A stretch of 34,003 bases of DNA from an uncultured Candidatus Peribacteria bacterium (GTDB taxonomy: Bacteria > Patescibacteriota > Gracilibacteria > Peribacterales > Peribacteraceae). A program made the position numbers and the translations under genes. The stretch covers positions 1 through 34,003 of the forward strand of contig CAZWVP010000001.1 of NCBI GenBank assembly GCA_964636635.1, read 5' to 3'. Numbering within the stretch: position 1 is the first letter of the stretch; every line of letters begins with the position of its first letter. The notes below the pieces were generated by a model that did no database searches, was not told the origin of the DNA, and saw nothing but the letters and a program-made list of their open reading frames with translations. Below are positions 1-28,481 of the stretch, one piece after another.

Positions 1-2180
1 AGGCCGGGCAGGTTCGCCGGGTGAATTTCTTTTTTCTGAGTCTCCAACTGAGGTGTCAGTTCCTTCATAGCGGCGTCCACATCGCCGCCGTTTTCGTGCA
101 GGAGTTTGGCCAGTTTGTACGGAAGCGTCCCCGGCATGAAGCCCGCTCCGAGCAGTATTTTATGCAAATGCCTCCAGTCCACGTTTTCGCCCGCGTTCAA
201 ATCGCGCAACACTTTGGTGCCTTGTGTCGGTACCATGCCCGGCACGCGGTCTTCGAAGAAGCCCATGACGCTGGATTCCTTCGTGGCGATGAGCGTCGTC
301 ATGACCCGGGCGAGGGGGTGACTGACGGTGGGGAATTCCGGCACCCTGCCCGCAAGCGCGGCCGGGAAATGCTCGTGCCAGTCGCGCACGACGCTTTCGG
401 GCAGCGGCAGATCGAGCGTGCTCTTCAGCATGATGCGCAGTGAGGGCAGAGGCGGCGTGAATTCGCCCTGTGACGCTTTGATGATGAGGTCGGCTCGCAG
501 CCATTCTTCGTTGCTGCGTGCGACGTTGCGCATGCATTCGGAAACGAACTTGGCGCCTTTCATGGCTGAGATGAGATTCGCGCTCATTTCCTGAACCGTG
601 GAAAATTCTTTGAGATGTTCCGCCACTTCGTGCAGCGACTGGATGCGCCCTTGAGCCAGCTCTCCTTCGTTCGCGGCTTTTTTATTCAGGAATCCGACGA
701 TGCGTCTGTAGGTGAAAGTGGCATCTTCGTCTTTCGTCATCCATTCCAAATGTTGCACGAACTTACGGGCGGCTTTGAGTTCTTCGGGTGAGACGTTCGA
801 GCCTTTCGGCAAAAGCGCCTCGGCCACTTCTTCCAAGGAAGCGTTCGCGAGTTCGCGGCGAACGCGCATGTCCAAGCCTTTGCCCTTCAGCCCGGAACCG
901 TTACGGCGAAAGAAACGTTCGCGCTCTTGGAAGTAGGACCGTCGCAGATCATCGGCGTCTTCCGGCGTGGTGGAAAGCACTTGAATGAGGGCCTCCACCG
1001 CCACTTGGCGACTGACGTGGTTGTTGTACAGAATGCCGCGAATTTCGGAATCGGGTCGATACTTCTGCTTGCGCTCGTCCGTCTTGGCCACCCCGCGTTC
1101 TTCGGGTGTTTTTATGCCCGCAAGCTTCGCCAGTTGAGGCGTGGTGTAGCCTTGCGCGTCCATGGCCTGCGTGGCGACGGTGCCGAAGGAGGGTCTGGCG
1201 CATTCTATTTCCCAGGCTTTTTTCCACGCCTCGCGGAACGCGTTTCGTTCTTGAGGGGGAATGAGTTCTTTCACGACGGGCTCAATGGCTTCGGGGGTGA
1301 TGAGTTCTTTTTGAATGAGCTGCTGCGCATGCAGCGGACCGAAGCCGTAGGCTTCCTGCAGCGACTGTGCGGTGCAGGTGACGCCGTGAGTGACGGCCAA
1401 GTCTTTCTCCATGGCAATGAGCAAACTCGCCAGCGGTTTCTCCAATGTCCATGTCTCGTATTGCCGCTCTTTGGTGGCCGTCCAAACAGCCAAGCCTTCT
1501 TGGCGTCGCAAGGCATTCAGCGCCGCACCTTTTTCGTTTTTTGCGGGATACGCGCCGTCCACGATGCCGAGTACCTCCACGCAAGCGGGGATGGTCTGCG
1601 TTTTCTCACGCTGCCAAATGGTGTTGTAGAAGCCCGGCTGAATTCTTTCCACCTGCGCGTGGCCGCGATCGAAGCCGACGCGGTGGTAAAAGGCGTTCAT
1701 GTGCTTGGCATTCAGACAGTCTGCACATTGGGTTCGTACCTGTTCGATGGCTTCGAGAAGATTTCGAGATTCGGGCGCTTGTTCCAGCACGTCCGGCATG
1801 GTGAGCAAGTCGAGCAGTTGTTCCCGCACCCCCAAAGGAATGTCGCACTTTTCCCAGTATTCCAGAATGCGCGTGTACTTCGAACGGTGCGGGGCCAGGT
1901 TTTCGCCGAGGTCTTTTTCCATAGCCACGTACCCTTGCTGACTGAAACCGGCACCGTCGGCGAATTCTTTGATGGGCAAATGCAGAATCGACCAGCGCAC
2001 GGAAGCGATGAGCTTCGGGAGTTTGGTTTCGGTTTCCGCGAAAATTCTCTCCAGAGCCGCGTTGCCACGCTTGGCCGCCATCAGCTCGAACGCCCGCAGC
2101 TTGGCGGTGTCGTGCAGTTGCGGCGCATCCAGCGGCAGACGCTTGTGCAAGCCGGGGAGGTTGGCGGATGAGGGGCGCAT
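1..2180 (-). CDS. Large hypothetical protein, C-terminus cut by the window edge (at least 726 aa). Alpha-helical with about 7-8 tandem HTH (XRE/Cro)-like modules.
   Basis: Absent from the ORF track because it has no stop in the window. Manual reverse-complement translation from ATG 2178-2180 (MRPSSANLPGLHKRLPLDAPQLHDTAKLRAFELMAAKRG...) stays open, checked line by line, to position 1. The ATG directly abuts the helicase stop (TAAATG). Segments such as IKEFADGAGFSQQGYVAMEKD, YTTPQLAKLAGIKTPEE and ASLEEVAEALLPKG resemble HTH cores. No other minus-strand ORF in the track shares this frame. Confidence 0.75.
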   Translation of the reverse strand, partial: MRPSSANLPGLHKRLPLDAPQLHDTAKLRAFELMAAKRGNAALERIFAETETKLPKLIASVRWSILHLPIKEFADGAGFSQQGYVAMEKDLGENLAPHRSKYTRILEYWEKCDIPLGVREQLLDLLTMPDVLEQAPESRNLLEAIEQVRTQCADCLNAKHMNAFYHRVGFDRGHAQVERIQPGFYNTIWQREKTQTIPACVEVLGIVDGAYPAKNEKGAALNALRRQEGLAVWTATKERQYETWTLEKPLASLLIAMEKDLAVTHGVTCTAQSLQEAYGFGPLHAQQLIQKELITPEAIEPVVKELIPPQERNAFREAWKKAWEIECARPSFGTVATQAMDAQGYTTPQLAKLAGIKTPEERGVAKTDERKQKYRPDSEIRGILYNNHVSRQVAVEALIQVLSTTPEDADDLRRSYFQERERFFRRNGSGLKGKGLDMRVRRELANASLEEVAEALLPKGSNVSPEELKAARKFVQHLEWMTKDEDATFTYRRIVGFLNKKAANEGELAQGRIQSLHEVAEHLKEFSTVQEMSANLISAMKGAKFVSECMRNVARSNEEWLRADLIIKASQGEFTPPLPSLRIMLKSTLDLPLPESVVRDWHEHFPAALAGRVPEFPTVSHPLARVMTTLIATKESSVMGFFEDRVPGMVPTQGTKVLRDLNAGENVDWRHLHKILLGAGFMPGTLPYKLAKLLHENGGDVDAAMKELTPQLETQKKEIHPANLPG

Positions 2181-4751
2181 TTACTTGATGTTCATTTCCA
2201 ACTCGGCCGCCGAGTCGGCGTAGGCTTTGGCCAGGGCATTGCCGCGTCTGGCCATGACGGCGCACAGGCGGTTGATTTCTTTCAAAATTGCCGTGGCCAA
2301 TTCCTGGTCGCGTTTTTTGGCGTTATAGGCGTCGTTGGCGGCCAGCTTCAGCGAGCCGACATACTGATGAATGCCACATTGCACCGCGAGCACGTCCAAA
2401 TTCACGGGGCGCCCCGCGGCATCCAGCTGCAGTTCGATGGCTTTGACGGCATTCTTCGTTTCCTTGCCCTTCTTCCCCTTGCCGGACTCTTTGGGTGTGA
2501 CCGCTTCCACTTTCGTAGTCACAACGGGCATCGTCCCTTCTTTCTCGCCGCTTACGGCCAAGTGTTGGGAGAGTGCACTTTGCGATTCGCGTTCCGCCTT
2601 CTTCCGTTCTGCCTCCAACACGAAAGCGCTGGTGCTTTTGAGCGGCGTACCTTCGTCGAGCGCGTGCTTCCGACGTTTGCGCTTTTGCACCAATATGGCG
2701 TCGGGAATGGGTTCGGGCCTGGAAAGGCCTGCGCGTTTTTGGTCGCGTTCGTAGGCGTCGAGGTCAATCATGCACTGCAGCGGCGTCCAAGTGGCGTCCT
2801 GTTCGGGCAACCGGAAGCCCATCGCTTGCGCCATTTCGCGAATGTAGGATTCCCCTTGCTGTCCTTGCAGCCATTGCATGCGGAAAAACGTGCGAGCCTT
2901 GTCGGCGTTCGCGCCTTCTTCGGTGTTGCGTATATGCCCCAAACGTCCGCGCGTTTGGTCCAGCGCATAGCGGTTCATGTTCGTAAGAATGTCGTAACAC
3001 TCCGCGCGCAGACGCAAAGCTTCGGCGATGAGCGGAGGAATGGTGACGAGAACGCGCTTCGGCTCGCCTTCTTCTTTCGGCGCATTGAACCCGTTGACGA
3101 TGATGTTCCAGCGGTCGCCACCCGCCGCGCCGTCGTAGCACCACACTTTCGCGGGCATTTTCTGCTTCACGTGCGCTTCTTGAATGCGATGCGCGTATTC
3201 GCGAGCTTGACCGGAAGCCGTCACGACGACGGTGTCGAGTTCGTACGGCTGAGGGAGTCCGAGCTTCGTCGCGGTTTTCGTCTTGGCAAACAGCTGTTTT
3301 TCGTACGCCTGCCACGCTTCTTCGCTGCCCGCTGCAGGCGGGTTTTTCGCATCGCCGATGCCGGCAAAAGCGATGGGTTTCATGAGCTTCCGGCGAATCA
3401 TCTCCTGCGTGGAGAGCATGGGCGAACGCTCGCTCCAACCGTCGATGCCGCGGTCCTGCCCCGTGAGGCCCACGATGAGCGGCCACTCTCCGCTGAGTTC
3501 CGACGTGGTGTCTCCGAGTGAGGCAGGGTTGAGTTTGCCGGCTTCGTCCACCACCAACAGACGCGCGCGCTTCAGAATTTCCTCCCGCACGTCGCTGCGC
3601 ACCAGGTCGGCCGCGCGCGTGAGGGCGGAGCCGTACGAAATGCAGAACTGCGCCGGCGTTTCGAGGTTCGGCTTGTTGGAGTACGCGTCGCGGTTCACCG
3701 ACAACTGAACGTGCGAGGCTTTTATGCGATACTCGGGCGTTTCCACCAGTGCGTAAGCTCCGTCACCGCGGTAGCGATTTTGCCCGTCGTCGTTGCCGAG
3801 AGCCTCGCGAGGCAGGGGCTTTTCCGGTTGCGGCACGTTGTAGATGTCGCGCACGAGCACCATTTTTCCGGCCATGAGCGAAAGCAGCGTGGCTCGAATT
3901 TGCGTGCGCTTTTCCGCTTGGAGTTTCGCCCAGCGATCGGCCGGTTTTCCACTGAGAGCGGCGAGGTAGGCGTCGAGCTTTTGCTCGGCCGTCCGGCCGT
4001 CCTGCTCTTCGGCCGAAACTTCGTTGGCATCGAAGAGTCCGAAGAAGGGGTGCTTTTTGCCTCGCGGCTTTTCGAAGCATTCGCTGAAGTCCGTTCCGAA
4101 CATGGTGCCGAGGTTGTTCCAGTAGCCAGTGACGTCTTTGCGTTCCACGGTGTACGGCGGCTGGAGAACGGCATGCTGTTGGCCCAAAGCGTTTTGCGAC
4201 ATGTGCTCTTTGCGCATGCCTAAAATGGCACCCGTCGGCACTTGTTTCGGGTCCGTGCCGTTTTGCATCATTTCATGTTGGAGAGCCACGAAAGCTTCCA
4301 CCGTCACGCCGCCGACCAGTGTCTTGCCGCTGCCGTACGGTGAGCGCAAAAGCAAATTCGAGACGCGGTCACGCGTGCCGCTGCACACGGAAAGCGTGGT
4401 CCAAGCGAAGAGTGCTTTTTGGTGGGGAAACAGTTCCATGCCGTTGGCGTTGAAGCCGGCACGGTCCATTTCCCGCCACAGCGCAAAGAGGCGCGCGGTC
4501 AGTTTTTGCGAAAATTCATCGGACGGTTCATAGCGTGTACGGAGCCATTCCTCGTAGTCGTGCGCCGGTGGCGTGAGGGTATGAGTTTCGAAACGTTCGT
4601 CGACGTAACTCCAAGCCTCCGCATCGTTGTCGGGGTAGACGGTTTCTATGCTGCCGCGCATGCCGTGGAAAGCCGTGGCGGCTTTCTTGCTTTTTTTGCC
4701 CGTGGCCACCATGTCCACAGGCTCCGGGAGTGCGTGAGAAGGGGTATGCAT
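2181..4751 (-). CDS. SF2 (DEAD/DEAH / ResIII-like) helicase-family protein, 856 aa, with a Lys-rich linker and a C-terminal helical domain
   Basis: ORF track protein. Motifs: FPHQ upstream of Walker A SPYGSGKT (about aa 137-144), motif II LLVVDEAG (about aa 398-404), GLTGQ (III-like), and LDQTRGRLGH (motif VI-like, about aa 597-606). The segment around aa 688-770 is KRKRRK / KESGKGKKGKETK rich. Confidence 0.8.
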   Translation of the reverse strand: MHTPSHALPEPVDMVATGKKSKKAATAFHGMRGSIETVYPDNDAEAWSYVDERFETHTLTPPAHDYEEWLRTRYEPSDEFSQKLTARLFALWREMDRAGFNANGMELFPHQKALFAWTTLSVCSGTRDRVSNLLLRSPYGSGKTLVGGVTVEAFVALQHEMMQNGTDPKQVPTGAILGMRKEHMSQNALGQQHAVLQPPYTVERKDVTGYWNNLGTMFGTDFSECFEKPRGKKHPFFGLFDANEVSAEEQDGRTAEQKLDAYLAALSGKPADRWAKLQAEKRTQIRATLLSLMAGKMVLVRDIYNVPQPEKPLPREALGNDDGQNRYRGDGAYALVETPEYRIKASHVQLSVNRDAYSNKPNLETPAQFCISYGSALTRAADLVRSDVREEILKRARLLVVDEAGKLNPASLGDTTSELSGEWPLIVGLTGQDRGIDGWSERSPMLSTQEMIRRKLMKPIAFAGIGDAKNPPAAGSEEAWQAYEKQLFAKTKTATKLGLPQPYELDTVVVTASGQAREYAHRIQEAHVKQKMPAKVWCYDGAAGGDRWNIIVNGFNAPKEEGEPKRVLVTIPPLIAEALRLRAECYDILTNMNRYALDQTRGRLGHIRNTEEGANADKARTFFRMQWLQGQQGESYIREMAQAMGFRLPEQDATWTPLQCMIDLDAYERDQKRAGLSRPEPIPDAILVQKRKRRKHALDEGTPLKSTSAFVLEAERKKAERESQSALSQHLAVSGEKEGTMPVVTTKVEAVTPKESGKGKKGKETKNAVKAIELQLDAAGRPVNLDVLAVQCGIHQYVGSLKLAANDAYNAKKRDQELATAILKEINRLCAVMARRGNALAKAYADSAAELEMNIK

Positions 4752-4761
4752 AAAGTGCCAA

Positions 4762-4790
4762 ATTCTAGGCTTGCAGGCAGCCGTCTACAA
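4762..4790 (-). promoter_or_regulatory. Sigma70-type promoter of the helicase operon: TTGTAG-17-TAGAAT, with ATG 10 nt downstream
   Basis: Minus-strand reading: cTTGTAGacggctgcctgcaagccTAGAATttggcactttATG. Confidence 0.55.
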
Positions 4791-5208: not shown

Positions 5209-5712
5209 ATGGGAATGGAATCCCACGTTCGGCAACGCTTTGCCATTGAATTTGCGGACAAACTCGCAAGCACGGTTTCCGATGTTTTGCGCCGCAACAT
5301 CGTTGAACTGCGTCGCAGATTGCTTCGGTACCAAGACATAGCCGAGCAGGTCGATGTGTCCGCGGCGCTGGCGGCGCTTGGCGCGCAAACACTGGCCGTG
5401 CGCGAGTCCATCGTCGCGAGAGTTTGCCAAAATACGTTGTCGTTTCGCGAGCATCAGGACATCAATCATCAAATTCTGCAGGCGCGACCCAGTGGGCGCG
5501 AACGACCGGAGTGGAACGAGCGTATTGATGCTCGTTTGTTGGAGCTGGCCGGAGGCGCAGTTCATGATTCGGGCCCGCACAAAGGCGAGCCTGACATCGG
5601 GCGCATTGCTTCGCTTCTGAATAAGGAATTCGGTTTGCAGTTGGAAAAAAACGTTTGGAAACGCCGTTTGCAGACCGCACGCGAACATGCGGCTCGGCAG
5701 CCTGCGGTGTGA
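5209..5712 (+). CDS. Hypothetical protein (167 aa)
   Basis: The ORF has coding-like codon usage and a promoter directly upstream. No family recognised. The overlapping 387-aa minus-strand ORF looks like an antisense shadow. Confidence 0.55.
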   Translation: MGMESHVRQRFAIEFADKLASTVSDVLRRNIVELRRRLLRYQDIAEQVDVSAALAALGAQTLAVRESIVARVCQNTLSFREHQDINHQILQARPSGRERPEWNERIDARLLELAGGAVHDSGPHKGEPDIGRIASLLNKEFGLQLEKNVWKRRLQTAREHAARQPAV

Positions 5713-6569: not shown

Positions 6570-7319
6570 CTAAGGCAACACCTTCGCCAGGTTCGTGTCG
6601 TCCGTCATCATGATGCGCGGCAGTTTGAACCAGTCGTCTTTTTCGGTCACGGGCCGCGGGTCCATGATGCTGGCCGTAAGGTAGCCTGCCGCCTTGGCGC
6701 GCTCACGCACCAGCGCGTTCTGCGCGGTGGACGGGTAGGCGAGGTGCAAGACGGGTTTGCCCGTGAGGGCTTCGAGTGTTTTGCGACTTTCCGTCAGTTC
6801 TTCATCCAGCCTTTTGCGCGAAAGGTAAGTGAGTGTGGAGTGGGAAACGGTGTGTGATTCCACGAACATACCCGCCTTCACCAGCTCTTTCGTTCGTGCT
6901 TCGTCGATGGTGCCGGGGTTTTTGAGGCGATTGCTCACTTGGTAGAACACGGCTTTCTGGTAGTACTTCTTCAGTACGGGCAGAGCGTTTTCGTAGGCGT
7001 TGAGATTGTTGTCGTCGAAGGTGATGACCACGGGCTTCACGGGACCTTGCAGTTCGCCTTTCAGTATTTTCGTCATGGTGGTGAGGTCGATGCTCGTGTA
7101 GTTGTTATCGGCCAGCCACTTCATATGTTTTTCGAACGTGGCGGGAGTGACGGTCATTTTCCAGCTCCAGGTGCTTTTCGCCCACCCTTGCTGAGGGCGC
7201 ACATGGTGGTACACCAAAATGGGAATGCTGAATTTCTTTCCGGGTGCGGTTTGCGCGTGCGTGCTTGGTGTAATGAACAGCAGTGTGGCGAGGACTCCAA
7301 GAAGCACGTGGTGTTTCAT
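6570..7319 (-). CDS. Polysaccharide deacetylase (NodB/CE4 family), secreted
   Basis: Signal peptide MKHHVLLGVLATLLFITPSTHAQ. NodB motifs ITFDD and ESHTVSH. The track ORF (to 7523) was trimmed because its N-terminal extension reads through tRNA-Leu. Confidence 0.85.
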   Translation of the reverse strand: MKHHVLLGVLATLLFITPSTHAQTAPGKKFSIPILVYHHVRPQQGWAKSTWSWKMTVTPATFEKHMKWLADNNYTSIDLTTMTKILKGELQGPVKPVVITFDDNNLNAYENALPVLKKYYQKAVFYQVSNRLKNPGTIDEARTKELVKAGMFVESHTVSHSTLTYLSRKRLDEELTESRKTLEALTGKPVLHLAYPSTAQNALVRERAKAAGYLTASIMDPRPVTEKDDWFKLPRIMMTDDTNLAKVLP

Positions 7320-7326
7320 GGGGCTC

Positions 7327-7332
7327 AGTATA
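7327..7332 (-). promoter_or_regulatory. -10 box TATACT, 7 nt upstream of the deacetylase ATG
   Basis: Minus-strand reading: ctacggTATACTgagccccATG. The -35 is weak. Confidence 0.35.
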
Positions 7333-7355
7333 CCGTAGATAAAAGTATTTTTTGA

Positions 7356-7442
7356 TGGTGCCCAGAAGAGGACTTGAACCTCCACAGGATTGCTCCTACA
7401 CGCTCCTGAAGCGTGCGCGTCTACCAATTCCGCCATCTGGGC
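7356..7442 (-). tRNA. tRNA-Leu (anticodon CAG), CCA encoded
   Basis: Minus-strand GCCCAGATGGCGGAATTGGTAGACGCGCACGCTTCAGGAGCGTGTAGGAGCAATCCTGTGGAGGTTCAAGTCCTCTTCTGGGCACCA. It has a 7-bp acceptor stem, anticodon loop TTCAGGA, a long variable arm and a GTTCAAGTCC T-loop. Confidence 0.93.
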
Positions 7443-7517
7443 ATTCCAAAGATCAACCGGTGGATTTTTGCCTATAGTCACCTGCTTGTCGAGCAAAAAC
7501 ACGCTACGCTTGCGCGC

Positions 7518-8360
7518 ATGCACTGCGTTTGCGTGGGTTGTGTGGCCGACGAAAAGTATGCGCCCGGTCTGGCTGGCACCTTGCGTTCACTCGCCGATGC
7601 CTGCAGCCGACCCGTGCAGGCTTGGGTGATAGACGGAGGCCTTTCGCCGGAAGCCCGAAAGAAGTTGAACGCGTCTTGGTCGAACATAGAAGTGCATTGG
7701 TTGGAACCGGATTTTTCGCACATCAAAAATCTGAAAGCACACAAATGGTTCAACTACCTCGTGCACGCACGCTTGCTGCTGCCGCACTTGGCAACGGGTG
7801 CGGAGCGTTTGTTGTACGTGGATAGCGACATGCTCGTGCGTGGCGACGTTGCGCAGTTGTACGACAGCGACTTGTACGGAAAAGCCTTCGGAGCGGTGCA
7901 GGACTTGGGATGCTTGACGGTTTCGGAACCGACGTACGGACTTCTCAACTGGCGCGAATTGGGTTTGCCGCCGGACAGGCCGTATTTCAATTCCGGCTTG
8001 CTCCTCATGAACATTCCCCGCTGGAACGAGCTGGCGCTTTCGGAGCGCGTTCTGGAATACGTCGCGCAGAATCCCGAGCAGCTCCGTTGGCCCGGGCAGG
8101 ATGGCGTGAACGTGATTGGCGGCGAGCATTGGACGCAGTTGGACCCGGCCTGGAACTCGCTCTACGAAGCCTTGCGCACCATGGATTGGTCCGATGATCG
8201 CACCGATGCCGCGACGCTTAGCCGTTTCACGGTAGACCCGAAGATTGTGCATTTCATCGGCCCCATAAAGCCGTGGCAGGCAAGCTGTGCGCATCCTCGT
8301 ACTTCCGAGTTTTTAGACGTGCTTCGTCGCACTGCCTTCGCAGCCGACATTCCGCACTAG
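7518..8360 (+). CDS. Glycosyltransferase family 8 (LPS/glycan alpha-glycosyltransferase-like)
   Basis: YVDSDMLV (DxD), NSGLLLMN, GQDGVNV and HFIGPIKPW motifs. Start moved to ATG 7518 to avoid overlapping the tRNA. Confidence 0.85.
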   Translation: MHCVCVGCVADEKYAPGLAGTLRSLADACSRPVQAWVIDGGLSPEARKKLNASWSNIEVHWLEPDFSHIKNLKAHKWFNYLVHARLLLPHLATGAERLLYVDSDMLVRGDVAQLYDSDLYGKAFGAVQDLGCLTVSEPTYGLLNWRELGLPPDRPYFNSGLLLMNIPRWNELALSERVLEYVAQNPEQLRWPGQDGVNVIGGEHWTQLDPAWNSLYEALRTMDWSDDRTDAATLSRFTVDPKIVHFIGPIKPWQASCAHPRTSEFLDVLRRTAFAADIPH

Positions 8361-10297: not shown

Positions 10298-10807
10298 GTG
10301 CGCATGCGTTTTTCCGCCCCTCTTCTTCTGTGTGTATTTCTGCTCGCCGCTTGTTCCCAGAAACAAGTGAAGATTGGCGATGAGCCGCAAAAGGGGCGCA
10401 GCGAATATTCCATACCCGACAAGTCGGTTGCGGTGGACCCCGATCACGGACGCGAGGTGGCACTCGGCGTCACGGCTTTGACCGGCACGGGCGGTACCCA
10501 GGCCAACGGCGTGGCTCAAGCCAGTCTCTTCAGCGACGGCGCTGCGCGTGCCGTGCTGCAGCTCAACATTGCCCGGACGGAAGCGGGTGAATACTACGAG
10601 GCGTGGCTGCGCAACCCGTCCACGGGAGAAAAGGTCTCGTTGGGGCAAGTGACGAGCAAGCTCGGAGATGCCCGTCACGGCGCCCGCAAAGACGTTAAAA
10701 AAGACCCGCGCGACTTTTCGGAGGTGGTGATTACCCGGGAAAATGAATCTCCCGCCGTAGCGGGCGTAACGGTGGCGGTGGGAACCTTGAAGTTCCAGCG
10801 GCGCTGA
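10298..10807 (+). CDS. Lipoprotein with an RskA-like (anti-sigma-K C-terminal-like) domain
   Basis: Signal peptide with lipobox LLAAC. GEYYEAWLRNPSTGEKVSLGQV resembles the RskA C-terminal motif. GTG 10298 or ATG 10304 could be the start. Confidence 0.65.
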   Translation: MRMRFSAPLLLCVFLLAACSQKQVKIGDEPQKGRSEYSIPDKSVAVDPDHGREVALGVTALTGTGGTQANGVAQASLFSDGAARAVLQLNIARTEAGEYYEAWLRNPSTGEKVSLGQVTSKLGDARHGARKDVKKDPRDFSEVVITRENESPAVAGVTVAVGTLKFQRR

Positions 10808-11216: not shown

Positions 11217-11293
11217 CGGGATGTAGCTCAGTTGGCTAGAGCGTACGGTTCGGAACCGTAAGGCCGCAGGTTCAAGTCCTGTCATCCCGACCA
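11217..11293 (+). tRNA. tRNA-Pro (anticodon CGG), CCA encoded
   Basis: CGGGATGTAGCTCAGTTGGCTAGAGCGTACGGTTCGGAACCGTAAGGCCGCAGGTTCAAGTCCTGTCATCCCGACCA. Acceptor stem CGGGATG/CATCCCG, anticodon loop TTCGGAA. Confidence 0.93.
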
Positions 11294-12647: not shown

Positions 12648-12864
12648 CGAGAGCAGCACGCAAGCTTACGTCCAATTCGTCCAACGTTTCGTCGCTCAGA
12701 GGACTTTGCGTTTGCAGTTTTTGGTAGTCCGCGCCGTTTTCCAAGAGCAGATGAATGCGATACAAAAAAGCCGTTCGAGGGTTGGTTAAGTCTCCGCTGT
12801 CGAGCATTTCCGTACGCAGCGCCGCGGGCGAGTTCGGCAGCGTTCTGTCTATGGAGTTACTCAT
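12634..12864 (-). CDS. Small hypothetical protein (76 aa, MSNSIDRTLPNSPAALRTEML...)
   Basis: Coding-like codon usage. Internal ATG of the 86-aa ORF. Overlaps the yhhQ 3' end by 14 nt (convergent). Confidence 0.4.
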   Translation of the reverse strand: MSNSIDRTLPNSPAALRTEMLDSGDLTNPRTAFLYRIHLLLENGADYQKLQTQSPLSDETLDELDVSLRAALATKA

Positions 12865-12960
12865 GAGAAAGAGAGATGAAGAAATGGAGATCATTCTACC
12901 CGTGAAAACGTTGCTGCCTAGTGACTCTGCTGTAGTATGGTTTCACTTCACCCGCTCATC

Positions 12961-13530
12961 ATGTCTTCCTTCTTGAAAAACACCCCCGCCCTCATTCTTC
13001 TCGGTATCATCTTCGTGCTCGGAGCGTGGCTCTGGAGCAGTTACAACGGTTTGGTGGGCTCCAAGGCGGAACTCGACTCCGCTTGGGCGAACGTGGAGGC
13101 TCAGTACCAGCGTCGTTTCGACTTGATTCCGAACCTGCAAGCCATCGTGCAAGGCGCCGCCGACTTCGAGAAGAGCACGTTTACCGCGGTGACGGCAGCT
13201 CGTACGCAGTGGCAGAATGCCGGTTCACAAACCGAAAAACTTCAGGCCATCAACAACTTCGACAGTTCGCTGTCGCGCTTGCTCGTGACGGTTGAGGCGT
13301 ATCCCGCATTGAAAGCCACGCAAAACTTCGCCGATTTCCAAGCCGAATTAGCCGGTACGGAAAACCGCATCACCGTTTCCCGTCAGGACTACAACGAGGC
13401 CGTGAAGCGTTACAACGTGTTCGTGAAGGTGTTCCCGCGCAACCTCATCGCTTCGTGGTTCGGCTACGAGGAGGCCGCTTTCTTCCGTGCCGCCGAAGAC
13501 GCGGCTCAGGCTCCGAAAGTGCAGTTCTAG
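12961..13530 (+). CDS. lemA: LemA family membrane protein
   Basis: N-terminal TM, then YNGLV...VEAQYQRRFDLIPNL...EAYPALKA...ELAGTENRI...R.YN is a typical LemA signature. ATG 12961 is preferred over 12937 because 12937 overlaps a candidate -10 box (TAGTAT at 12933-12938, with TTGCTG 16 nt upstream). Confidence 0.88.
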   Translation: MSSFLKNTPALILLGIIFVLGAWLWSSYNGLVGSKAELDSAWANVEAQYQRRFDLIPNLQAIVQGAADFEKSTFTAVTAARTQWQNAGSQTEKLQAINNFDSSLSRLLVTVEAYPALKATQNFADFQAELAGTENRITVSRQDYNEAVKRYNVFVKVFPRNLIASWFGYEEAAFFRAAEDAAQAPKVQF

Positions 13531-13531
13531 C

Positions 13532-14407
13532 ATGTTCAGCCGCATGCCGATCGTCGGCCTGTGTGCCGCCGCATTGTTCTTGCAGGCGAACTTCGCACAT
13601 GCGGAAATAACCGTGCCCGCCAATGACGGTTACGTGACGAATCTTGCGGGTGAAACGGTGATGACAACGGTGCAGGAAGAGGCTTTGGAAGCCGATTTGA
13701 AGGCCTACAAAGACGCCACGAGCAACGAAATCGCAGTCGTCATTTTACCCGAACTGGCCGGCATGCCCGCTTTCGACGTGGCGTTGCAAATAGGCAGAAG
13801 TTGGGGCGTGGGTGACGAGCAGAAAGACAACGGCATCGTGTTTTTGGTGGCGTACAAAGAACGCGAAGTCTTTCTCTCCATTGGGCGAGGGTTGGAAGGC
13901 CCCGTGCCCGACATGATCGCCAAGCGGATCATTGAAACTGACATCGTGCCGCAATTTCGCGACGGCAAATATGCCGAAGGCATCGCTGCGGGCATCGACG
14001 CCTTGAAGAAGCACATCGGTGGCGAGTACACCGCCGACCGTTATGCCGTGAGCACGTCTCCCGACGTTATTTTCTTCATGCTCATTTTCGCGCTTATCGG
14101 TCTCCAATGGCTGGCCGCGTTTCTCTCGCGCAGCAAATCGTGGTGGTTGGGCGGGGTGCTGGGCGGGGCGGGCGGCTCTTGGGCGGCATTGTTTTCCGGT
14201 TGGTGGCTGCTCGTGCCGCTGCTCGTCGGCGTCGGCTTGGTGTTCGACTACTGGGTTTCGAAATACCCGCAAATCGGTCGCCATCGCCGAGGCGGCGGTT
14301 GGCGCGGCGGTTCGGGCGGTTGGGGCAGTGGCGGAGGCGGCGGAGGTGGCTTCGGTGGCTTCGGCGGCGGGTCGTTCGGCGGAGGCGGCGCTGGTGGCAG
14401 GTGGTAG
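13532..14407 (+). CDS. TPM-domain (YgcG-like) membrane protein with a Gly-rich C-terminal tail
   Basis: Signal peptide, then TPM motifs (NEIAVVILPEL, DNGIVFLVAYKEREV..IGRGLEG), TM segments and a GGGWRGGSGGWGSGGGGGGGFGGFGGG tail. The start lies 1 nt after the lemA stop. Confidence 0.85.
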   Translation: MFSRMPIVGLCAAALFLQANFAHAEITVPANDGYVTNLAGETVMTTVQEEALEADLKAYKDATSNEIAVVILPELAGMPAFDVALQIGRSWGVGDEQKDNGIVFLVAYKEREVFLSIGRGLEGPVPDMIAKRIIETDIVPQFRDGKYAEGIAAGIDALKKHIGGEYTADRYAVSTSPDVIFFMLIFALIGLQWLAAFLSRSKSWWLGGVLGGAGGSWAALFSGWWLLVPLLVGVGLVFDYWVSKYPQIGRHRRGGGWRGGSGGWGSGGGGGGGFGGFGGGSFGGGGAGGRW

Positions 14408-14443
14408 GGGATAGGATTAAGGATTAGGGTTAGGGTTAAGGAT
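14405..14443. repeat. Degenerate tandem 6-7-nt repeat TAGGGGA TAGGAT TAAGGAT TAGGGT TAGGGT TAAGGAT (telomere-like TTAGGG units)
   Basis: Read directly; begins at the TPM stop codon. Confidence 0.85.
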
Positions 14444-14458
14444 CGCGAAATGCGCGAC

Positions 14459-14486
14459 ACGCTATACGCCACACGCAATACGCAAT
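14459..14486. repeat. Four tandem heptamers: ACGCTAT ACGCCAC ACGCAAT ACGCAAT
   Basis: Read directly. The last unit overlaps a TAGACT -10-like box (14486-14491), 6 nt upstream of ATG 14498. Confidence 0.85.
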
Positions 14487-14497
14487 AGACTGCATGC

Positions 14498-15382
14498 ATG
14501 CTCAAATACTCGTGCCTGCTCCTGCTCATTCTGATTCCGACTGCCTCCGTGCAAGCGGCGGAGATGTTGCACATTACCGAGACGCCGACATCGCACGGCA
14601 CCATCCCGCCAGGCAGCCAGCGCGTGCCGTTCCTGTCGCTCAAACTGGAGGCTCCTTGCGGCGGTGACGATGTGGAACTTCAATCTCTCACGTTTCGTCA
14701 CGGCGGTGCCGGAGCATTGCAAGATTTCGCCGCTTTGTACCTTCTGAGCGAAGCGGGCGAGAGACTTTCGTCGCCGCGCGCTTTCTCCGACCGCAGCGGC
14801 AAAATTACGTTGCCTCTTTCGGATTGGACGTTGCCCGCTTGCGCCACGCAAACGCTTGTCCTCGCGGCCGATATTTCCGCTTCCGCCAGTCCGGCGGCGG
14901 TGCATCGCTTGCAGTTTACCGGTATGGAACCTGCTCGCTCCTTTCAGCACACGATGGCAAAAGCCCTTGCCGCCGAGCCTATTCGCGTGCCGGCGGGGCG
15001 ACTGAAGTACGAATTTCTCACCGTCACGAAACGCCCGCGAGCCACGGTGCTCGGCACGTTGCATCGTTTCCAACTGGAAAACGACACGCAGGATGCTCAG
15101 GAGCTCCGCAGCATACACTTCACGCTCGGCGGCACCATTCGCGAAAGTGATCTCACCGGTCTGCAGCTGCGCCGGCACAACCAAGTATTGGCGAAGGCCG
15201 CGAAGGTGACGAAGACCGGGGTGACCTTTACGTTGAGCCAGCCGTTCGCGTTGCCACGCAGTTCCAGCATTCAGTTCAGCGTCATGGGCATTGTGCAGAG
15301 GCGCGCCTACGGCACGCTGTCATTTTCTATCCGGGACGCATCGGACATTGTTGTCCAGACCAGGCGCGAGCGCACCCGGTGA
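14498..15382 (+). CDS. Secreted hypothetical protein (294 aa) with two similar beta-rich halves
   Basis: Signal peptide MLKYSCLLLLILIPTASVQAAE. Both halves follow a similar pattern: a hydrophobic-alternating stretch, then L..L.F..GG, then T(L/F).L. Confidence 0.7.
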   Translation: MLKYSCLLLLILIPTASVQAAEMLHITETPTSHGTIPPGSQRVPFLSLKLEAPCGGDDVELQSLTFRHGGAGALQDFAALYLLSEAGERLSSPRAFSDRSGKITLPLSDWTLPACATQTLVLAADISASASPAAVHRLQFTGMEPARSFQHTMAKALAAEPIRVPAGRLKYEFLTVTKRPRATVLGTLHRFQLENDTQDAQELRSIHFTLGGTIRESDLTGLQLRRHNQVLAKAAKVTKTGVTFTLSQPFALPRSSSIQFSVMGIVQRRAYGTLSFSIRDASDIVVQTRRERTR

Positions 15383-15397
15383 CGCGAGCTCGATTTT

Positions 15398-16270
15398 GTG
15401 CCACACTTGGCTACCGTGAGACCACTATGGCTATTTGCGGGGGTCGTCGTACTGTCGGTGCAGGTTTCCGCCTGTGCGAAAGTTCGGCAGGTGTTGCCGG
15501 CGGCGCAAGTACTGGAGCGCGCCACCGTGGCGGGAACGCAATTGGAATCGGCACGTTTCACCTTGGCTCTGGATTGGACGGACAGTGACGGATCGTTGGT
15601 GGTGCAAGCTGACGGAGTCATGCAAAACGGCGGCAAGCAGCTCGGTGCCAGTTTTACGGGTGCGTACGTGCCTTCGTCGGGAATCGCGACCGAGCCCATC
15701 GAAGCGGCCGGGGAAGTTCGTTTGGTGAGCGGTACGGAACAGTACGTTCGTCTGCAAAAACTCTCGATATTGCCTGAAGAAGCTCGTCCGTTTCTGAATA
15801 CTTGGTGGAAGTTGCCCACGGCCGGCAGCGGTGAAATGTTGAGCGTGGAGGTGACGCCGGACCCGGTCATGCTTACTGCCCAGTCGGAATCGGTGCGACT
15901 GCTTCGTGACGACGGCATCGTGCAGCGCAACGGCGAGGACACCTACCATTACGCGGTGACCGTGGACGCGGAGAAACTGGAAACGGTTTTGGCAGCCATG
16001 AATGAGACCGACGAAGACGAGCCGTTGCCCGAGTGGTTGAACGCCGAGCAGGTGGAAGGGGAGCTTTGGATAGGTGCCGATGATTTCATTCTGCGCGAAG
16101 CCCGTTGGTTGGTGCGTGAAACGGCCGAAAATCCGTTGCCGCGAGGCACCCTTCGTTTTTCTCTCGATGACATCAACGACGCACCGGCCGTGAGCGTGCC
16201 ACCCAATGCTCCGGAATTCTCCTTCGATGCTTTCGGCATGCCGCCGAGCTTCCTCTCGCCCACGCCATGA
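15398..16270 (+). CDS. Lipoprotein, hypothetical (possibly a LolA/LppX-like fold)
   Basis: Signal peptide with lipobox VSAC (LWLFAGVVVLSVQVSAC). Alternative GTG start at 15416. No family confidently recognised. Confidence 0.7.
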   Translation: MPHLATVRPLWLFAGVVVLSVQVSACAKVRQVLPAAQVLERATVAGTQLESARFTLALDWTDSDGSLVVQADGVMQNGGKQLGASFTGAYVPSSGIATEPIEAAGEVRLVSGTEQYVRLQKLSILPEEARPFLNTWWKLPTAGSGEMLSVEVTPDPVMLTAQSESVRLLRDDGIVQRNGEDTYHYAVTVDAEKLETVLAAMNETDEDEPLPEWLNAEQVEGELWIGADDFILREARWLVRETAENPLPRGTLRFSLDDINDAPAVSVPPNAPEFSFDAFGMPPSFLSPTP

Positions 16271-18303
16271 CCCCCGAGCCGCTTCTCGACGGCATTACCG
16301 CGCCTCCGACTCCGACGACGGTTTCGCCGGCACCCGCGCAGTCCGTGCCTGTTCGCATCGACCCGCCCGTGTCGCCGGAACTGCGCAAACGCATGCGTTT
16401 CGCATTGGTCACGCTCGTCGGCGCCCCGTACGGCGTGTTCCTGCTCTGGTGTCTCATTCTCATCACCATTTTCCCGAATGCCAGCGGCGGCTTCGACGCC
16501 ATCATTCCGTTGGCCATCACCACCGGTGCGCTCGGTGCTTTCATAGCCATCGCCATTGGTGCGGTGGCGGGCATTCGCATTGCGGCCGTGCCCACCACCC
16601 CCGTCATTAAAGTATTCAGCGGTATTCGCTTGGCGGCCGTGGTGCTGCCCGGAGTCATACTCGGAGGCTGGGCCGCTCTGGCCGCGAGTTCAGAGCCTTC
16701 GTTGCCCTTGCGCATTACGGCGCCCACCGATGCCAAGCAAGTGGTGGCCCCGTTGGCGGTGACGTTCAGTGCCGAAGAAGCCATGGAAATCGTCGCCAAG
16801 CGCAACAAGTCCGGCGTCAGTTTCGCTTGGGATTTCGACGGTGACGGTGTCGCGAACGACACCACCGTACTGCCCGTGGCTACGGCCGTGTACGACAAGG
16901 CCGGCGTGTACGCGGTGAGTGTGATCGTAAAACTCAGTGACGGTACCACGCGCACGCTCAAGCGGCAGCTCAGCATTCCCAGGCAGGTCTTCAGCGTGAC
17001 GCCTCTGCAGCCGCTCGTCGACCAACCTCTCACGTTCGATCTCACGAACCTGATTGCAACCCCCGAAGACATTCGTGGCGTGCAGTGGGATTACGAAAGC
17101 GACGGGAAAATCGATCACGAAGGCCCCGAAGCGCAGGTGAGCACCACCTACGTACGCACGGGCGATGTGACCGTGACCGCCGTGGTGACGTTGAACAACC
17201 AGACGAAGCAAGAACTCAAGCGCACCATCACCATCAGCGAGCCTCTGCCGCAGCCGTTTGCAGCCGAGATTGTTTCCGAACCGCTCATGCTCGTGAGCCC
17301 CACGCCGTTCCAGACGAAGTTCTCCGTCTCCACCGAAGAGAACGTGAAAGACGTGACGTGGGATTTCGGCGACGGCGGCAAAGCCGAAGGGCGCGAAGTG
17401 GGACACACCTTCGAGAAGAAAGGCCAGTTCTTGGTCACCGCCCGCTTGCGCAGCGCCGATACGGGCGAGACAACCGTTGTCTCCAAAGTGGTGAAGGCAA
17501 CAGATCTCCTGAAAATTCCCAATTTGCAATTCAACGGCGAACCGAAAGTGGATGAACAACGCGGCATGATAAGCGGCGAAGTGCCGTTGACCCTCAAGCT
17601 CACGCCCGTGGCCGACCCGCTCATCGATTTCTCTTGGGAGGTGCCCGAGGCGAGCGAGGTGGGCTCCACCGTCACGGCTCTGCAGGCCATTTACCGCCGT
17701 CCGGGAACGTACTCTCTGTATTTGGTGGCGCAAGCGCCCGACGGCAAATCGTTCCGTCGCAAGTACGTGGTGGAAGTTCGGCCGCCGTCTTCGTTCGTGG
17801 TCATTCGCACGGACCGCGAAGGCGGCGATGCGCCTTTCGCCGTTACGTTCGATGCTTCGGAAACCATCATTCCCGGCGAAACCATCAGCGGCTTCGAGTG
17901 GCTCTTCGGCCAAGGGAAGGAAGAGAAGCCAGTCCAGGCAGGCGCCATCGTGCGTCACACCTTTGCCAAACCCGGCACGTACATGGTCACCGCCACCGCC
18001 AAAACCACGAAGGGCGGCGCGTATCAATCCACCAAAACCATCGTGGTGCGCGCACCGCTTCTCAAAGCGTGTGTAACCGCCAGTCGCACGGAAGGTGCCG
18101 TACCGTTGGGTGTGAAGTTCGACAGCACCTGCACCGCAGGTACGCCGGTTTCGTACGAATGGGATTTCGGCGACGAGGCCAAAACGGATGAGGAGAATCC
18201 CACGCACGTCTTCGCCTCTTCTGGCAGCTTTACGGTTACCTTGAAGGTGACGGATAGCGCTGGTACGCTCAGCACCGATTCTCTTACCGTCACCGCAAAA
18301 TGA
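16267..18303 (+). CDS. Membrane protein with N-terminal TM helices and about 5 PKD-like Ig domains
   Basis: Repeated WDFDGDG / WDYESDGK / WDFGDGG..GHTF / WLFGQG..HTF..PGTY.VT / WDFGDE..NPTHVF..SGSFTVTLKVTD motifs. ATGA overlap with the upstream gene. Confidence 0.85.
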   Translation: MTPEPLLDGITAPPTPTTVSPAPAQSVPVRIDPPVSPELRKRMRFALVTLVGAPYGVFLLWCLILITIFPNASGGFDAIIPLAITTGALGAFIAIAIGAVAGIRIAAVPTTPVIKVFSGIRLAAVVLPGVILGGWAALAASSEPSLPLRITAPTDAKQVVAPLAVTFSAEEAMEIVAKRNKSGVSFAWDFDGDGVANDTTVLPVATAVYDKAGVYAVSVIVKLSDGTTRTLKRQLSIPRQVFSVTPLQPLVDQPLTFDLTNLIATPEDIRGVQWDYESDGKIDHEGPEAQVSTTYVRTGDVTVTAVVTLNNQTKQELKRTITISEPLPQPFAAEIVSEPLMLVSPTPFQTKFSVSTEENVKDVTWDFGDGGKAEGREVGHTFEKKGQFLVTARLRSADTGETTVVSKVVKATDLLKIPNLQFNGEPKVDEQRGMISGEVPLTLKLTPVADPLIDFSWEVPEASEVGSTVTALQAIYRRPGTYSLYLVAQAPDGKSFRRKYVVEVRPPSSFVVIRTDREGGDAPFAVTFDASETIIPGETISGFEWLFGQGKEEKPVQAGAIVRHTFAKPGTYMVTATAKTTKGGAYQSTKTIVVRAPLLKACVTASRTEGAVPLGVKFDSTCTAGTPVSYEWDFGDEAKTDEENPTHVFASSGSFTVTLKVTDSAGTLSTDSLTVTAK

Positions 18304-28393: not shown

Positions 28394-28481
28394 GGAGGGA
28401 TGGCAGAGTGGTCGATCGCGACTGACTTGAAATCAGTTGAACCGTAAGGTTCCGTGGGTTCGAATCCCACTCCCTCCGCCA
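28394..28481 (+). tRNA. tRNA-Ser (anticodon UGA), CCA encoded
   Basis: GGAGGGATGGCAGAGTGGTCGATCGCGACTGACTTGAAATCAGTTGAACCGTAAGGTTCCGTGGGTTCGAATCCCACTCCCTCCGCCA. Anticodon loop CTTGAAA, long variable arm. Confidence 0.93.

Follow-up and report, generated by a model that had tools for sequence, protein, structure and literature searches.

A translationally coupled operon of an atypical SF2 ATPase and a large multi-HTH protein in Peregrinibacteria, a candidate two-subunit nucleic-acid motor

Introduction

Superfamily 2 (SF2) motors that work with a DNA-binding adaptor are known as a kind. XPB has a DEVH Walker B motif, a RED motif in HD1 and a thumb insertion in HD2, and in archaea it pairs with the nuclease Bax1. 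Ordinary members of the XRE group of DNA-binding proteins have one helix-turn-helix (HTH) domain of ~60 amino acids (aa) together with a small oligomerisation or sensor domain. Here we describe two genes at the left end of a 34,003-nucleotide (nt) stretch of DNA from an uncultured Candidatus Peribacteria bacterium (contig CAZWVP010000001.1, assembly GCA_964636635.1), the whole of which we call the window. They form a genuine, translationally coupled operon of an atypical SF2 ATPase (gene 1) and a large multi-HTH protein (gene 2).

What is new here is an undescribed conserved pair, neither protein of which belongs to a curated family. A literature search returned no description of this helicase and multi-HTH pair, nor does the pair appear in the Peribacteria genome paper (PMC4736985).

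Results

Two genes joined stop to start

The two genes, their junction and the elements in front of them are the following:

2181..4751, minus strand: gene 1, atypical SF2 ATPase/helicase-like protein, 856 aa, ATG start, TAA stop included in the coordinates
1..2180, minus strand: gene 2, all-helical multi-HTH protein, 726 of ~740 codons, 3' end beyond the window edge
2178..2183, minus strand: stop-start junction TAAATG, read from the sequence
4785..4790, minus strand: -35-like hexamer TTGTAG, agreeing with the consensus at 3 of 6 positions
4762..4767, minus strand: -10-like hexamer TAGAAT, ending 10 nt before the ATG

The first-pass annotation, made from the sequence of the window, had proposed that two minus-strand genes are joined stop to start, and we confirmed this: the ATG of gene 2 (2180-2178) abuts the TAA of gene 1 (2183-2181) with zero gap. 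The TAAATG junction is consistent with translational coupling, and in homologous loci it ranges between an 8-nt overlap and a 20-nt gap. The gene 2 frame is intact across 1-2180, staying open for 726 codons up to the window edge. Its product had been given as at least 726 aa and running off the window, which is correct, though the protein is nearly complete, since end-to-end alignment with full-length homologues (734-765 aa) leaves only ~12-20 C-terminal residues outside; the source contig is listed at 36,812 nt. The GC content of the operon, 57-62%, is similar to that of the remaining window.

The same annotation had placed a promoter, TTGTAG and TAGAAT with a 17-nt spacer, in front of gene 1. 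Both strings exist, and comparison of the window with loci L003-L039 backs the -10-like element: of 22 lineages, 20 have a TAnnnT hexamer whose end lies 8-14 nt upstream of the first in-frame helicase ATG, while the frequency at random positions is 6.9%. The full site was not called by a generic sigma-70 promoter scan, because its -35-like hexamer fits the consensus at only half of its positions. A TAnnnT hexamer this near the start codon argues for a leaderless or very short-leader mRNA, and the operon transcript starting at M1 is probably of that kind. No Shine-Dalgarno sequence lies between the -10-like hexamer and the start codon, either in the window or in the upstream sequences inspected, and the pattern suggests that leaderless or near-leaderless transcription of the operon has been kept phylum-wide.

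An alternative start at M14 (4712; GGAG upstream) was dropped in favour of M1, because the -10-like hexamer keeps its fixed distance from the M1 ATG in those 20 lineages; several homologues have the upstream ATG only. The start of the divergent msrB gene is just 52 nt from the operon. On the opposite strand, the open reading frames (ORFs) 927-2171 (+) and 21-443 (+) were rejected as genes, as elsewhere they matched only the strand opposite the partner gene and are shadows of it. There is a third long antisense ORF at 2367-3521 (+), so that both genes are overlapped by such frames, and shadow ORFs of this sort are typical of GC-rich coding sequence.

The pair is kept together across Peregrinibacteria

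We found that the helicase family comprises 29 clusters at 90% identity, all unnamed or 'hypothetical'. An exhaustive partner profile search among 1.84 billion proteins recovered 68 clusters at 50% identity, nearly all of 690-770 aa, and no other family comes after them in the search. A repeated word-index search with the partner alignment gave the same 8 proteins as before. All cluster members that carry a name are hypothetical proteins of Peribacteria or Peregrinibacteria, and two remote partner relatives are labelled 'XRE-family transcriptional regulator' by JGI. Scans of species-representative genomes gave 16 loci, all in Ca. Peribacteria or Peregrinibacteria metagenome-assembled genomes (MAGs), and metagenome scans gave 20 loci; after duplicate removal, these represent 25 distinct lineages.

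In every locus with enough DNA (25 lineages), the partner gene lies immediately downstream on the same strand, at -8 to +20 nt, and neither gene was seen without the other where the DNA reached far enough. Conservation of the two genes as neighbours, which the first-pass annotation had named as a test of its claim, thus held in all 25 lineages. The apparent exception to this adjacency is L035, a contig that departs from its twin L022 just past the junction. The two are 100% identical over 1592 nt, a stretch that takes in the helicase 3' end and ~120 nt at the start of the partner region; from there on L035 (1593-2053) is completely different from L022 and probably represents either a strain-level rearrangement or the chimeric end of a contig.

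The two proteins also change together. Their pairwise identities correlate with r = 0.97 (190 pairs), and the GC content of the pair rises and falls with that of the flanking DNA over a range of 41% to 59%. Mean column identity along the full length is 47% for the helicase and 59% for the partner.

Gene 1 encodes an atypical SF2 ATPase

The 856-aa product of gene 1 had been annotated as an SF2/ResIII-like helicase. Its fold and its invariant motifs bear this out, although no curated sequence family recognises it above threshold. The AlphaFold2 model, built on a 28-sequence alignment (A1), has a predicted local distance difference test (pLDDT) score of 84 and a predicted template modelling (pTM) score of 0.77, and it consists of two tandem RecA-like lobes around which the following features are arranged:

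4452..4712, minus strand: N-terminal domain, ~aa 14-100, with motifs VFPDDDxEAW and SDEFSQ; conserved in A1, pLDDT >90
4401..4424, minus strand: HQKALFAW, Q-type motif upstream of Walker A, as in ResIII/XPB/SNF2-type SF2 proteins
4320..4343, minus strand: Walker A/motif I SPYGSGKT, aa 137-144; G142 and K143 invariant in the 28 sequences
3642..4184, minus strand: family-specific RecA1 insertion of ~180 aa, aa 190-370; highly conserved in A1, with secondary structure in the model
3537..3548, minus strand: Walker B/motif II DEAG, aa 402-405; D402, E403 and G405 invariant
3453..3470, minus strand: motif III-like GLTGQD, aa 428-433; G428, T430 and D433 invariant (GxTGxD in the family)
2832..3254, minus strand: RecA2 lobe, ~aa 500-640, alternating beta/alpha in the model
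2925-2960, minus strand: motif VI DQTRGRLGHIRN within RecA2; Q599, G602, R603, L604 and H606 invariant
2184..2831, minus strand: C-terminal region, aa 641-856, with a helical segment, a basic IPDxxxxxRRKxR patch, a low-complexity linker and a terminal helical domain

Within HQKALFAW, alignment A1 shows no variation at Q111 and little or none at H110, K112, A113 and W117. Walker A takes the form SPYGSGK[ST] across the family, and the family pattern of motif VI in the 28 sequences, DQxRGRLGH, fits the QxxGRxxR pattern of the SF2 arginine finger. Conserved positions of the C-terminal region are R691, K692, D684 and D670 (A1). The terminal helical domain (aa ~770-848, window 2208-2444) is missing in clade P0017-P0020, and in P0021, P0022 and P0025 an unrelated acidic tail stands in its place, which marks the domain as an optional accessory.

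Foldseek comparison of the model with the PDB gave 100 matches at an expectation value (E) <= 1e-3, and the 50 best listed are all helicase-type ATPases, nearly all of SF2 with one of SF1 (UvrD). Ranks 1-3 are XPB/Ssl2 in TFIIH (E ~4e-6), and the next matches include MrfA, RecQL5, Chd1, DbpA, LGP2/MDA5, Brr2 and Cas3. In the viral library BFVD there are 154 fold matches, the best of them phage 'SSL2 superfamily II helicases' (E ~1e-8). The template modelling (TM) scores of the fold matches are low, at 0.2-0.3, so only the core is common to gene 1 and these proteins.

Sequence comparison stayed below thresholds throughout. Gene 1 matched Pfam, NCBIfam, PADLOC and PHROGs only at E > 0.1. Pfam DEAD (PF00270) scored 12 bits with the window protein and 17-20 bits with the family consensus, against a cut-off of 26, and when the RecA1 insertion was removed the match rose to 20.1 bits (E 5.6e-4). 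Pfam ResIII (PF04851) scored 14.2 bits over the stretch of the Q motif and Walker A, with a cut-off of 22.5. Helicase_C matched none of the 28 family members, nor the family consensus, the consensus segment of the N-terminal domain had no Pfam match, and the family profile found nothing among PDB sequences.

Gene 1 has the two RecA lobes, Walker A, Walker B and motif VI by which the SF2 superfamily is defined, and it is a member of that superfamily with its catalytic motifs intact. Its product is predicted from the model to be a catalytically competent SF2 ATPase, the core of which would be nearest to XPB/Ssl2/ResIII-type translocases of double-stranded DNA (dsDNA).

Gene 2 encodes a string of HTH-like modules

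The AlphaFold2 model of the gene 2 product is all-helical. We cut the protein by secondary structure into seven modules of ~70 aa (A-G) with long helices between them, and compared each by hhalign, using a 51-sequence family alignment (A5), with an XRE reference profile made of ten classical Cro/C1 domains. This profile retrieves P22 C2, 434 Cro and repressor, HipB, SinR, MqsA and C.AhdI from the PDB (E 1e-26 to 1e-12). The percentages below are those of the match to the XRE profile:

1785..2042, minus strand: module A, aa 47-132; XRE 96%, E 3.8e-9, 55 columns; well supported
1539..1769, minus strand: module B, aa 138-214; XRE 8.9%, E 3.7e-3; reversed control 0.1%; weakly supported
1251..1451, minus strand: module C, aa 244-310; XRE 15.5%, E 1.7e-3; akin to F and G, only weakly to XRE
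966..1199, minus strand: module D, aa 328-405; XRE 88%, E 3.5e-6
681..893, minus strand: module E, aa 430-500; XRE 94%, E 9.2e-8, 52 columns; reversed control 1.5%; well supported
399..611, minus strand: module F, aa 524-594; XRE 27.7%, E 6.4e-4, 58 columns; weakly supported
81..335, minus strand: module G, aa 616-700; XRE 13%, E 2.1e-3; weakly supported

The control with a reversed profile gave 1.5% or less for every module. The claim that the protein is built of repeated HTH-like modules therefore stands in part: three of the seven (A, D and E) are XRE-type at 88-96%, and the other four are weak, at 9-28%. On profile comparison, we consider the multi-HTH label correct for three modules or more and plausible for the full seven. 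The reversed-profile control for module A was 0.1%, and an independent run of the built-in hhalign put this module at 86% (E 4.7e-6). In module D, helices 1-2 are well supported and an inserted loop sets helix 3 apart, and its consensus segment matches Pfam HTH_31, HTH_37 and HTH_3 at E 0.004-0.017. Module B bears the XRE-like signature WQREKTxTxP, in which W189, Q190, R191, T196 and P198 are invariant (11-sequence alignment A2). Compared with one another over the 51 sequences, C and F match at 77%, C and G at 59% and F and G at 51%, all other pairs staying at 23% or less; self-comparison of gene 2 on a shallow alignment gave a single weak off-diagonal match (E 0.44).

Across the 51 family members, Pfam HTH_31 matches 11 (best E 7e-7) and HTH_3 matches seven (best E 1.4e-5), and the family consensus scores 22.6 bits with HTH_3, for which the cut-off is 23. 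The protein of the window reaches no Pfam cut-off on its own. Gene 2 is thus a Cro/C1 (XRE) HTH protein at the level of the family profile, and the DNA-binding folds that the first-pass annotation had expected are there. The protein had no significant match in Pfam, PADLOC, NCBIfam, PHROGs or the PDB sequence profiles, its full-length model, which is of low confidence and many domains, gave no significant match in a fold search, and no nuclease or other enzymatic motif was detected in any family member with the family libraries. As a family, the poly-module XRE architecture is undescribed and lies outside the curated Pfam models.

One Peribacteraceae MAG (L009, 8454-10186) has its partner gene split into ORFs of 153 and 432 aa, with residues ~90-286 unrecovered; a frameshift, a deletion, decay to a pseudogene or faulty assembly could each explain this.

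The pair as a whole had been said to match no named system, and the PADLOC, Pfam, NCBIfam, PHROGs and PDB sequence searches are all negative in agreement with this; PADLOC-DB v2 returned 0 families for both proteins at E <= 1. Nor did the family libraries turn up the nuclease domain or methylase partner that had been reported as missing. Profile and structure searches placed neither protein in a characterised housekeeping pathway.

Genomic neighbourhood

In the window the operon is flanked by msrB and a VOC protein, earlier set down as unrelated housekeeping genes, and the flanks are indeed of housekeeping character both here and in related loci. The latter include genes for fructose-bisphosphate aldolase, a ribosomal-protein/rpoA cluster, Obg, DnaK, GAPDH, CCA-adding enzyme, RimK, glycosyltransferases and LigA. 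Among these, Obg and CCA-adding enzyme are neighbours in L041, and the ribosomal protein cluster, with methionine aminopeptidase, in L001.

The most recurrent annotated neighbour is LigA, the NAD-dependent DNA ligase, which is encoded convergently one or two genes 3' of the partner in 6 loci (in L042 at 12816-14951). A TPR protein of ~630 aa near the pair is also recurrent, in 6 loci. LigA or the TPR protein occurs downstream in L042, L027, L029, L031, L032, L036 and L022, and the window stops short of this position.

Upstream of the operon and divergent from it, a LemA-TPM gene pair is found at 12937-14407 (+) of the window and, in the marine L014/L027 lineage, at 3271-4420 of L014 and 5271-6420 of L027. 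Between the window and L014/L027, which have ~42% GC, the helicase is 40%, LemA 59% and TPM 39% identical. On these sequence comparisons, the LemA-TPM arrangement is a deep conserved synteny.

No integrase, transposase or phage structural gene stands next to the pair in any annotated locus. IMG/VR viral contigs contain no loci of the pair, and neither protein matched INPHARED phage or PLSDB plasmid records. PADLOC on 147 flanking ORFs gave few matches, mostly of generic ABC-ATPase or TatD types. By the measures of defence genes, integrases, presence in phages or plasmids and odd composition, the pair does not qualify as a defence island or as mobile cargo.

Several smaller observations concern the surroundings of the operon. 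Genes of the ParE-toxin and Phd/YefM-antitoxin families lie at 16099-16380 and 18440-18607 in L043, ~3-8 kb 3' of the pair. In the window, a tRNA-Leu(CAG) (7356-7442, -), 2.6 kb upstream of the operon, falls inside the 5' extension of a polysaccharide deacetylase ORF (6570-7523, -), and as it lies within the longest form of this ORF, the real gene starts downstream of the tRNA. The other tRNAs of the window are Pro(CGG) (11217-11293) and Ser(TGA) (28394-28481). A 167-aa ORF between msrB and the VOC gene (5209-5712, +) has no family match, and an anti-sigma-K RskA-like gene (10298-10807, +) lies downstream of an O-antigen-ligase-like gene.

Discussion

A two-subunit motor with a chromosomal role

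We give roughly even odds (about 0.5) to the interpretation that the pair makes up the two subunits of a vertically inherited nucleic-acid motor, seen so far in Peregrinibacteria only, with a chromosomal rather than an immune role. That the genes are strictly adjacent, are coupled stop to start and diverge in step argues for products that act jointly, probably as a complex, and the combination of an SF2 ATPase with a dsDNA-type HTH array suggests a DNA motor that brings its own anchoring or targeting subunit. A vertical, lineage-specific chromosomal function is indicated by the restriction to one phylum, the host-matched composition, the synteny, the housekeeping flanks and the conservation over the full length.

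Under this interpretation, both genes would be carried on one leaderless or short-leader mRNA, and gene 2 would be translated by stop-start coupling, favouring equimolar synthesis. The multi-HTH subunit might then grip an extended stretch of dsDNA as an anchor or targeting adaptor, while the SF2 subunit would use ATP hydrolysis to move along the adjacent DNA or to open it. The nearest working analogies would be XPB in TFIIH, HsdR on the recognition core of type I restriction-modification enzymes and the remodeller ATPases anchored by SANT/SLIDE domains. The complex may serve the chromosome, for example in repair, in transcription or in remodelling of the nucleoid, and not immunity; the LigA neighbourhood is the sole hint of repair, and the other two would follow only by analogy. 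The dsDNA substrate, the direction of action and the process served are all things that we infer.

Several observations weigh against this interpretation of a chromosomal DNA motor. Among the flanking ORFs, 3-5 are matched by the PADLOC models mad2, mad3 and mad8 (best E 1.5e-42), and two by the IetA model (E 5e-31), both counts being pooled over the flanks of related loci. DEAD-box RNA helicases are among the fold matches of gene 1 and the best sub-threshold Pfam family is DEAD, and the substrate may be RNA or a ribonucleoprotein instead of DNA. The model of the partner is of low confidence (pLDDT 65) and lacks a significant fold match, and four of its seven modules (B, C, F and G) are HTH-like only weakly. 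The physical complex of the two proteins, although probable, is drawn from gene coupling only. The loci were found by searching with the gene itself, and calling the pair 'core' rests on context, co-evolution and family breadth rather than on a presence frequency. Ca. Peribacter riflensis, whose genomes are closed, is not among the matches of a pattern-based scan that may have missed it.

Other explanations

The first-pass annotation had framed the pair as belonging to defence, restriction or mobile-element control, and this framing found no support in the comparison. The pair could still be an undescribed two-gene anti-phage or anti-plasmid system, in which the multi-HTH protein senses or binds foreign DNA or forms a repressor-like switch, with the SF2 motor as effector or licensing ATPase. 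A motor next to a DNA-binding protein, neither of a known or curated family, recalls many recently found defence pairs, and the immediate neighbours do vary between distant lineages, some related loci having flanking ORFs matched by mad2/3/8, IetA and QatD/AriA-like models and one, L043, a ParE/Phd toxin-antitoxin pair. We nevertheless regard this as unlikely. In neither protein can a nuclease, methylase or other effector domain be recognised, both are without a PADLOC match, and most of the PADLOC matches in the flanks are generic ABC-ATPase or TatD cross-matches. The pair was recovered from one phylum only, with no sign of horizontal spread, its GC content is matched to the host and its two proteins diverge in step, and both are strongly conserved over their full length. 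It also keeps its LemA-TPM and LigA synteny among direct neighbours of housekeeping type, lies in no variable or defence island, and is absent from viral contigs, phages and plasmids. That last absence, with the lack of an integrase, transposase or phage structural gene beside the pair in annotated loci, the agreement of its GC with that of the flanks and the preserved synteny with host genes, makes it highly improbable that we are looking at the cargo or the remains of a prophage or other integrated mobile element, such as a replication or control module, even though the closest viral folds are those of phage 'SSL2' helicases, phage repressors typically have XRE HTH domains and a tRNA-Leu stands 2.6 kb upstream in the window.

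The remaining explanations keep the pair on the chromosome and change what it does. An ATPase that remodels RNA or ribonucleoproteins in ribosome biogenesis or quality control, its HTH modules binding structured RNA or the ribosome in the manner of MBF1/EDF1, would account for the DEAD score of 20.1 bits, for the DEAD-box RNA helicases DbpA, Mss116, Vasa and DDX1 among the fold matches, for the ribosome-bound MBF1/EDF1 structures that match the XRE profile and for the translation-related neighbours in L041 and L001. We hold it to be quite unlikely, as the top fold matches are dsDNA translocases (XPB/Ssl2, MrfA, Chd1), HQKALFAW and DEAG are unlike the Q motif, DEAD and SAT of DEAD-box proteins, Cro/C1 HTH domains are overwhelmingly dsDNA binders, and the commonest annotated neighbour is LigA, no translation gene. 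It is improbable, too, that the genes are functionally independent and merely co-transcribed, one for a large XRE regulator that possibly autoregulates the operon and the other for a helicase that acts by itself in repair or recombination. Most XRE proteins are repressors, and JGI labels the two remote partner relatives as transcriptional regulators of this family; yet none of the 25 lineages departs from adjacency and stop-start coupling, neither gene occurs without the other where the DNA sufficed, the co-divergence of r = 0.97 indicates joint constraint, and a seven-module protein of ~740 aa is far bigger than an ordinary XRE repressor.

A stronger version of the two-subunit motor, which we find doubtful, would make the pair an essential, phylum-defining machine for DNA opening or nucleoid remodelling, in which a seven-HTH 'ruler' clamps at least ~70 bp and an XPB-like translocase pumps or unwinds the adjoining duplex. 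If this were true, it would be a bacterial counterpart of TFIIH-XPB or of remodeller motors, replacing a function handled differently elsewhere, and would constitute a new class of two-subunit SF2 machine together with a new architecture, the poly-XRE array.

Significance

The genomes of Candidate Phyla Radiation (CPR) bacteria are very small, and that genes of ~850 and ~740 codons are held together across a phylum of this kind points to a likely important role. The helicase represents an SF2 lineage that is invisible to sequence profiles. Should the pair be a chromosomal DNA motor with its own adaptor, it would be a lineage-specific solution to a basic DNA transaction and a new motor-adaptor design; if it turned out to serve defence instead, it would do so with no recognisable effector domain. 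Either way it offers a well-defined target of two proteins with clear motifs and ~25 natural variants.

Comparison with described systems

XPB/Ssl2/Rad25 (COG1061 'SSL2') is the best fold match of the two-RecA core of gene 1 in both the PDB and the viral library. The two are alike in having a Q-type motif ahead of Walker A, and the pair resembles archaeal XPB-Bax1 in that a dedicated partner is encoded adjacent to the motor. They differ in Walker B, which is DEAG in gene 1 and DEVH in XPB, in the RED tripeptide, which is absent after motif II in gene 1, and in the place of the large insertion, which is in RecA1 (aa 190-370) in gene 1, whereas XPB has its thumb in RecA2. No relationship appears at the sequence level, the PDB profile search being empty, and TM-scores of 0.2-0.3 denote likeness of the generic fold. 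On these grounds (DEAG, no RED, an insertion in RecA1 and no XPB in the PDB profile search), we rejected gene 1 as a member of the XPB/Rad25 family. A helicase-nuclease pair of the archaeal XPB-Bax1 type was rejected as well, since the partner is all-helical with no nuclease family match and its PDB searches were nonsignificant. 'Atypical SF2, ResIII-like' is a fair description of gene 1, which is not an XPB orthologue.

The type I and III restriction motors (HsdR, Res; ResIII) follow the same logic of an SF2 motor with a separate DNA-binding specificity component, and gene 1 is weakly ResIII-like over the Q motif and Walker A (14.2 bits, cut-off 22.5). Unlike them, the pair has no methyltransferase, nuclease or HsdS-like target-recognition domain that we could find and lies outside variable islands.

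Among chromatin remodellers, Chd1, Isw1 and CHD4 are significant fold matches of gene 1, and the parallel to Chd1/ISWI (SANT-SLIDE) is a conceptual one, that of an SF2 dsDNA translocase anchored by several HTH-fold modules. Bacteria have no nucleosomes, the modules are XRE-type and not Myb/SANT and are carried on a separate polypeptide, and no SNF2-type ATPase family of Pfam is among the matches of gene 1, sub-threshold ones included.

Of the proteins with Cro/C1 (XRE; HTH_3, HTH_31) domains, gene 2 shares the fold in modules A, D and E, which match the profile. We know of no precedent for a string of up to seven XRE-like HTH modules, and it is in this that gene 2 departs from ordinary XRE proteins, extending such diverged modules over ~740 aa.

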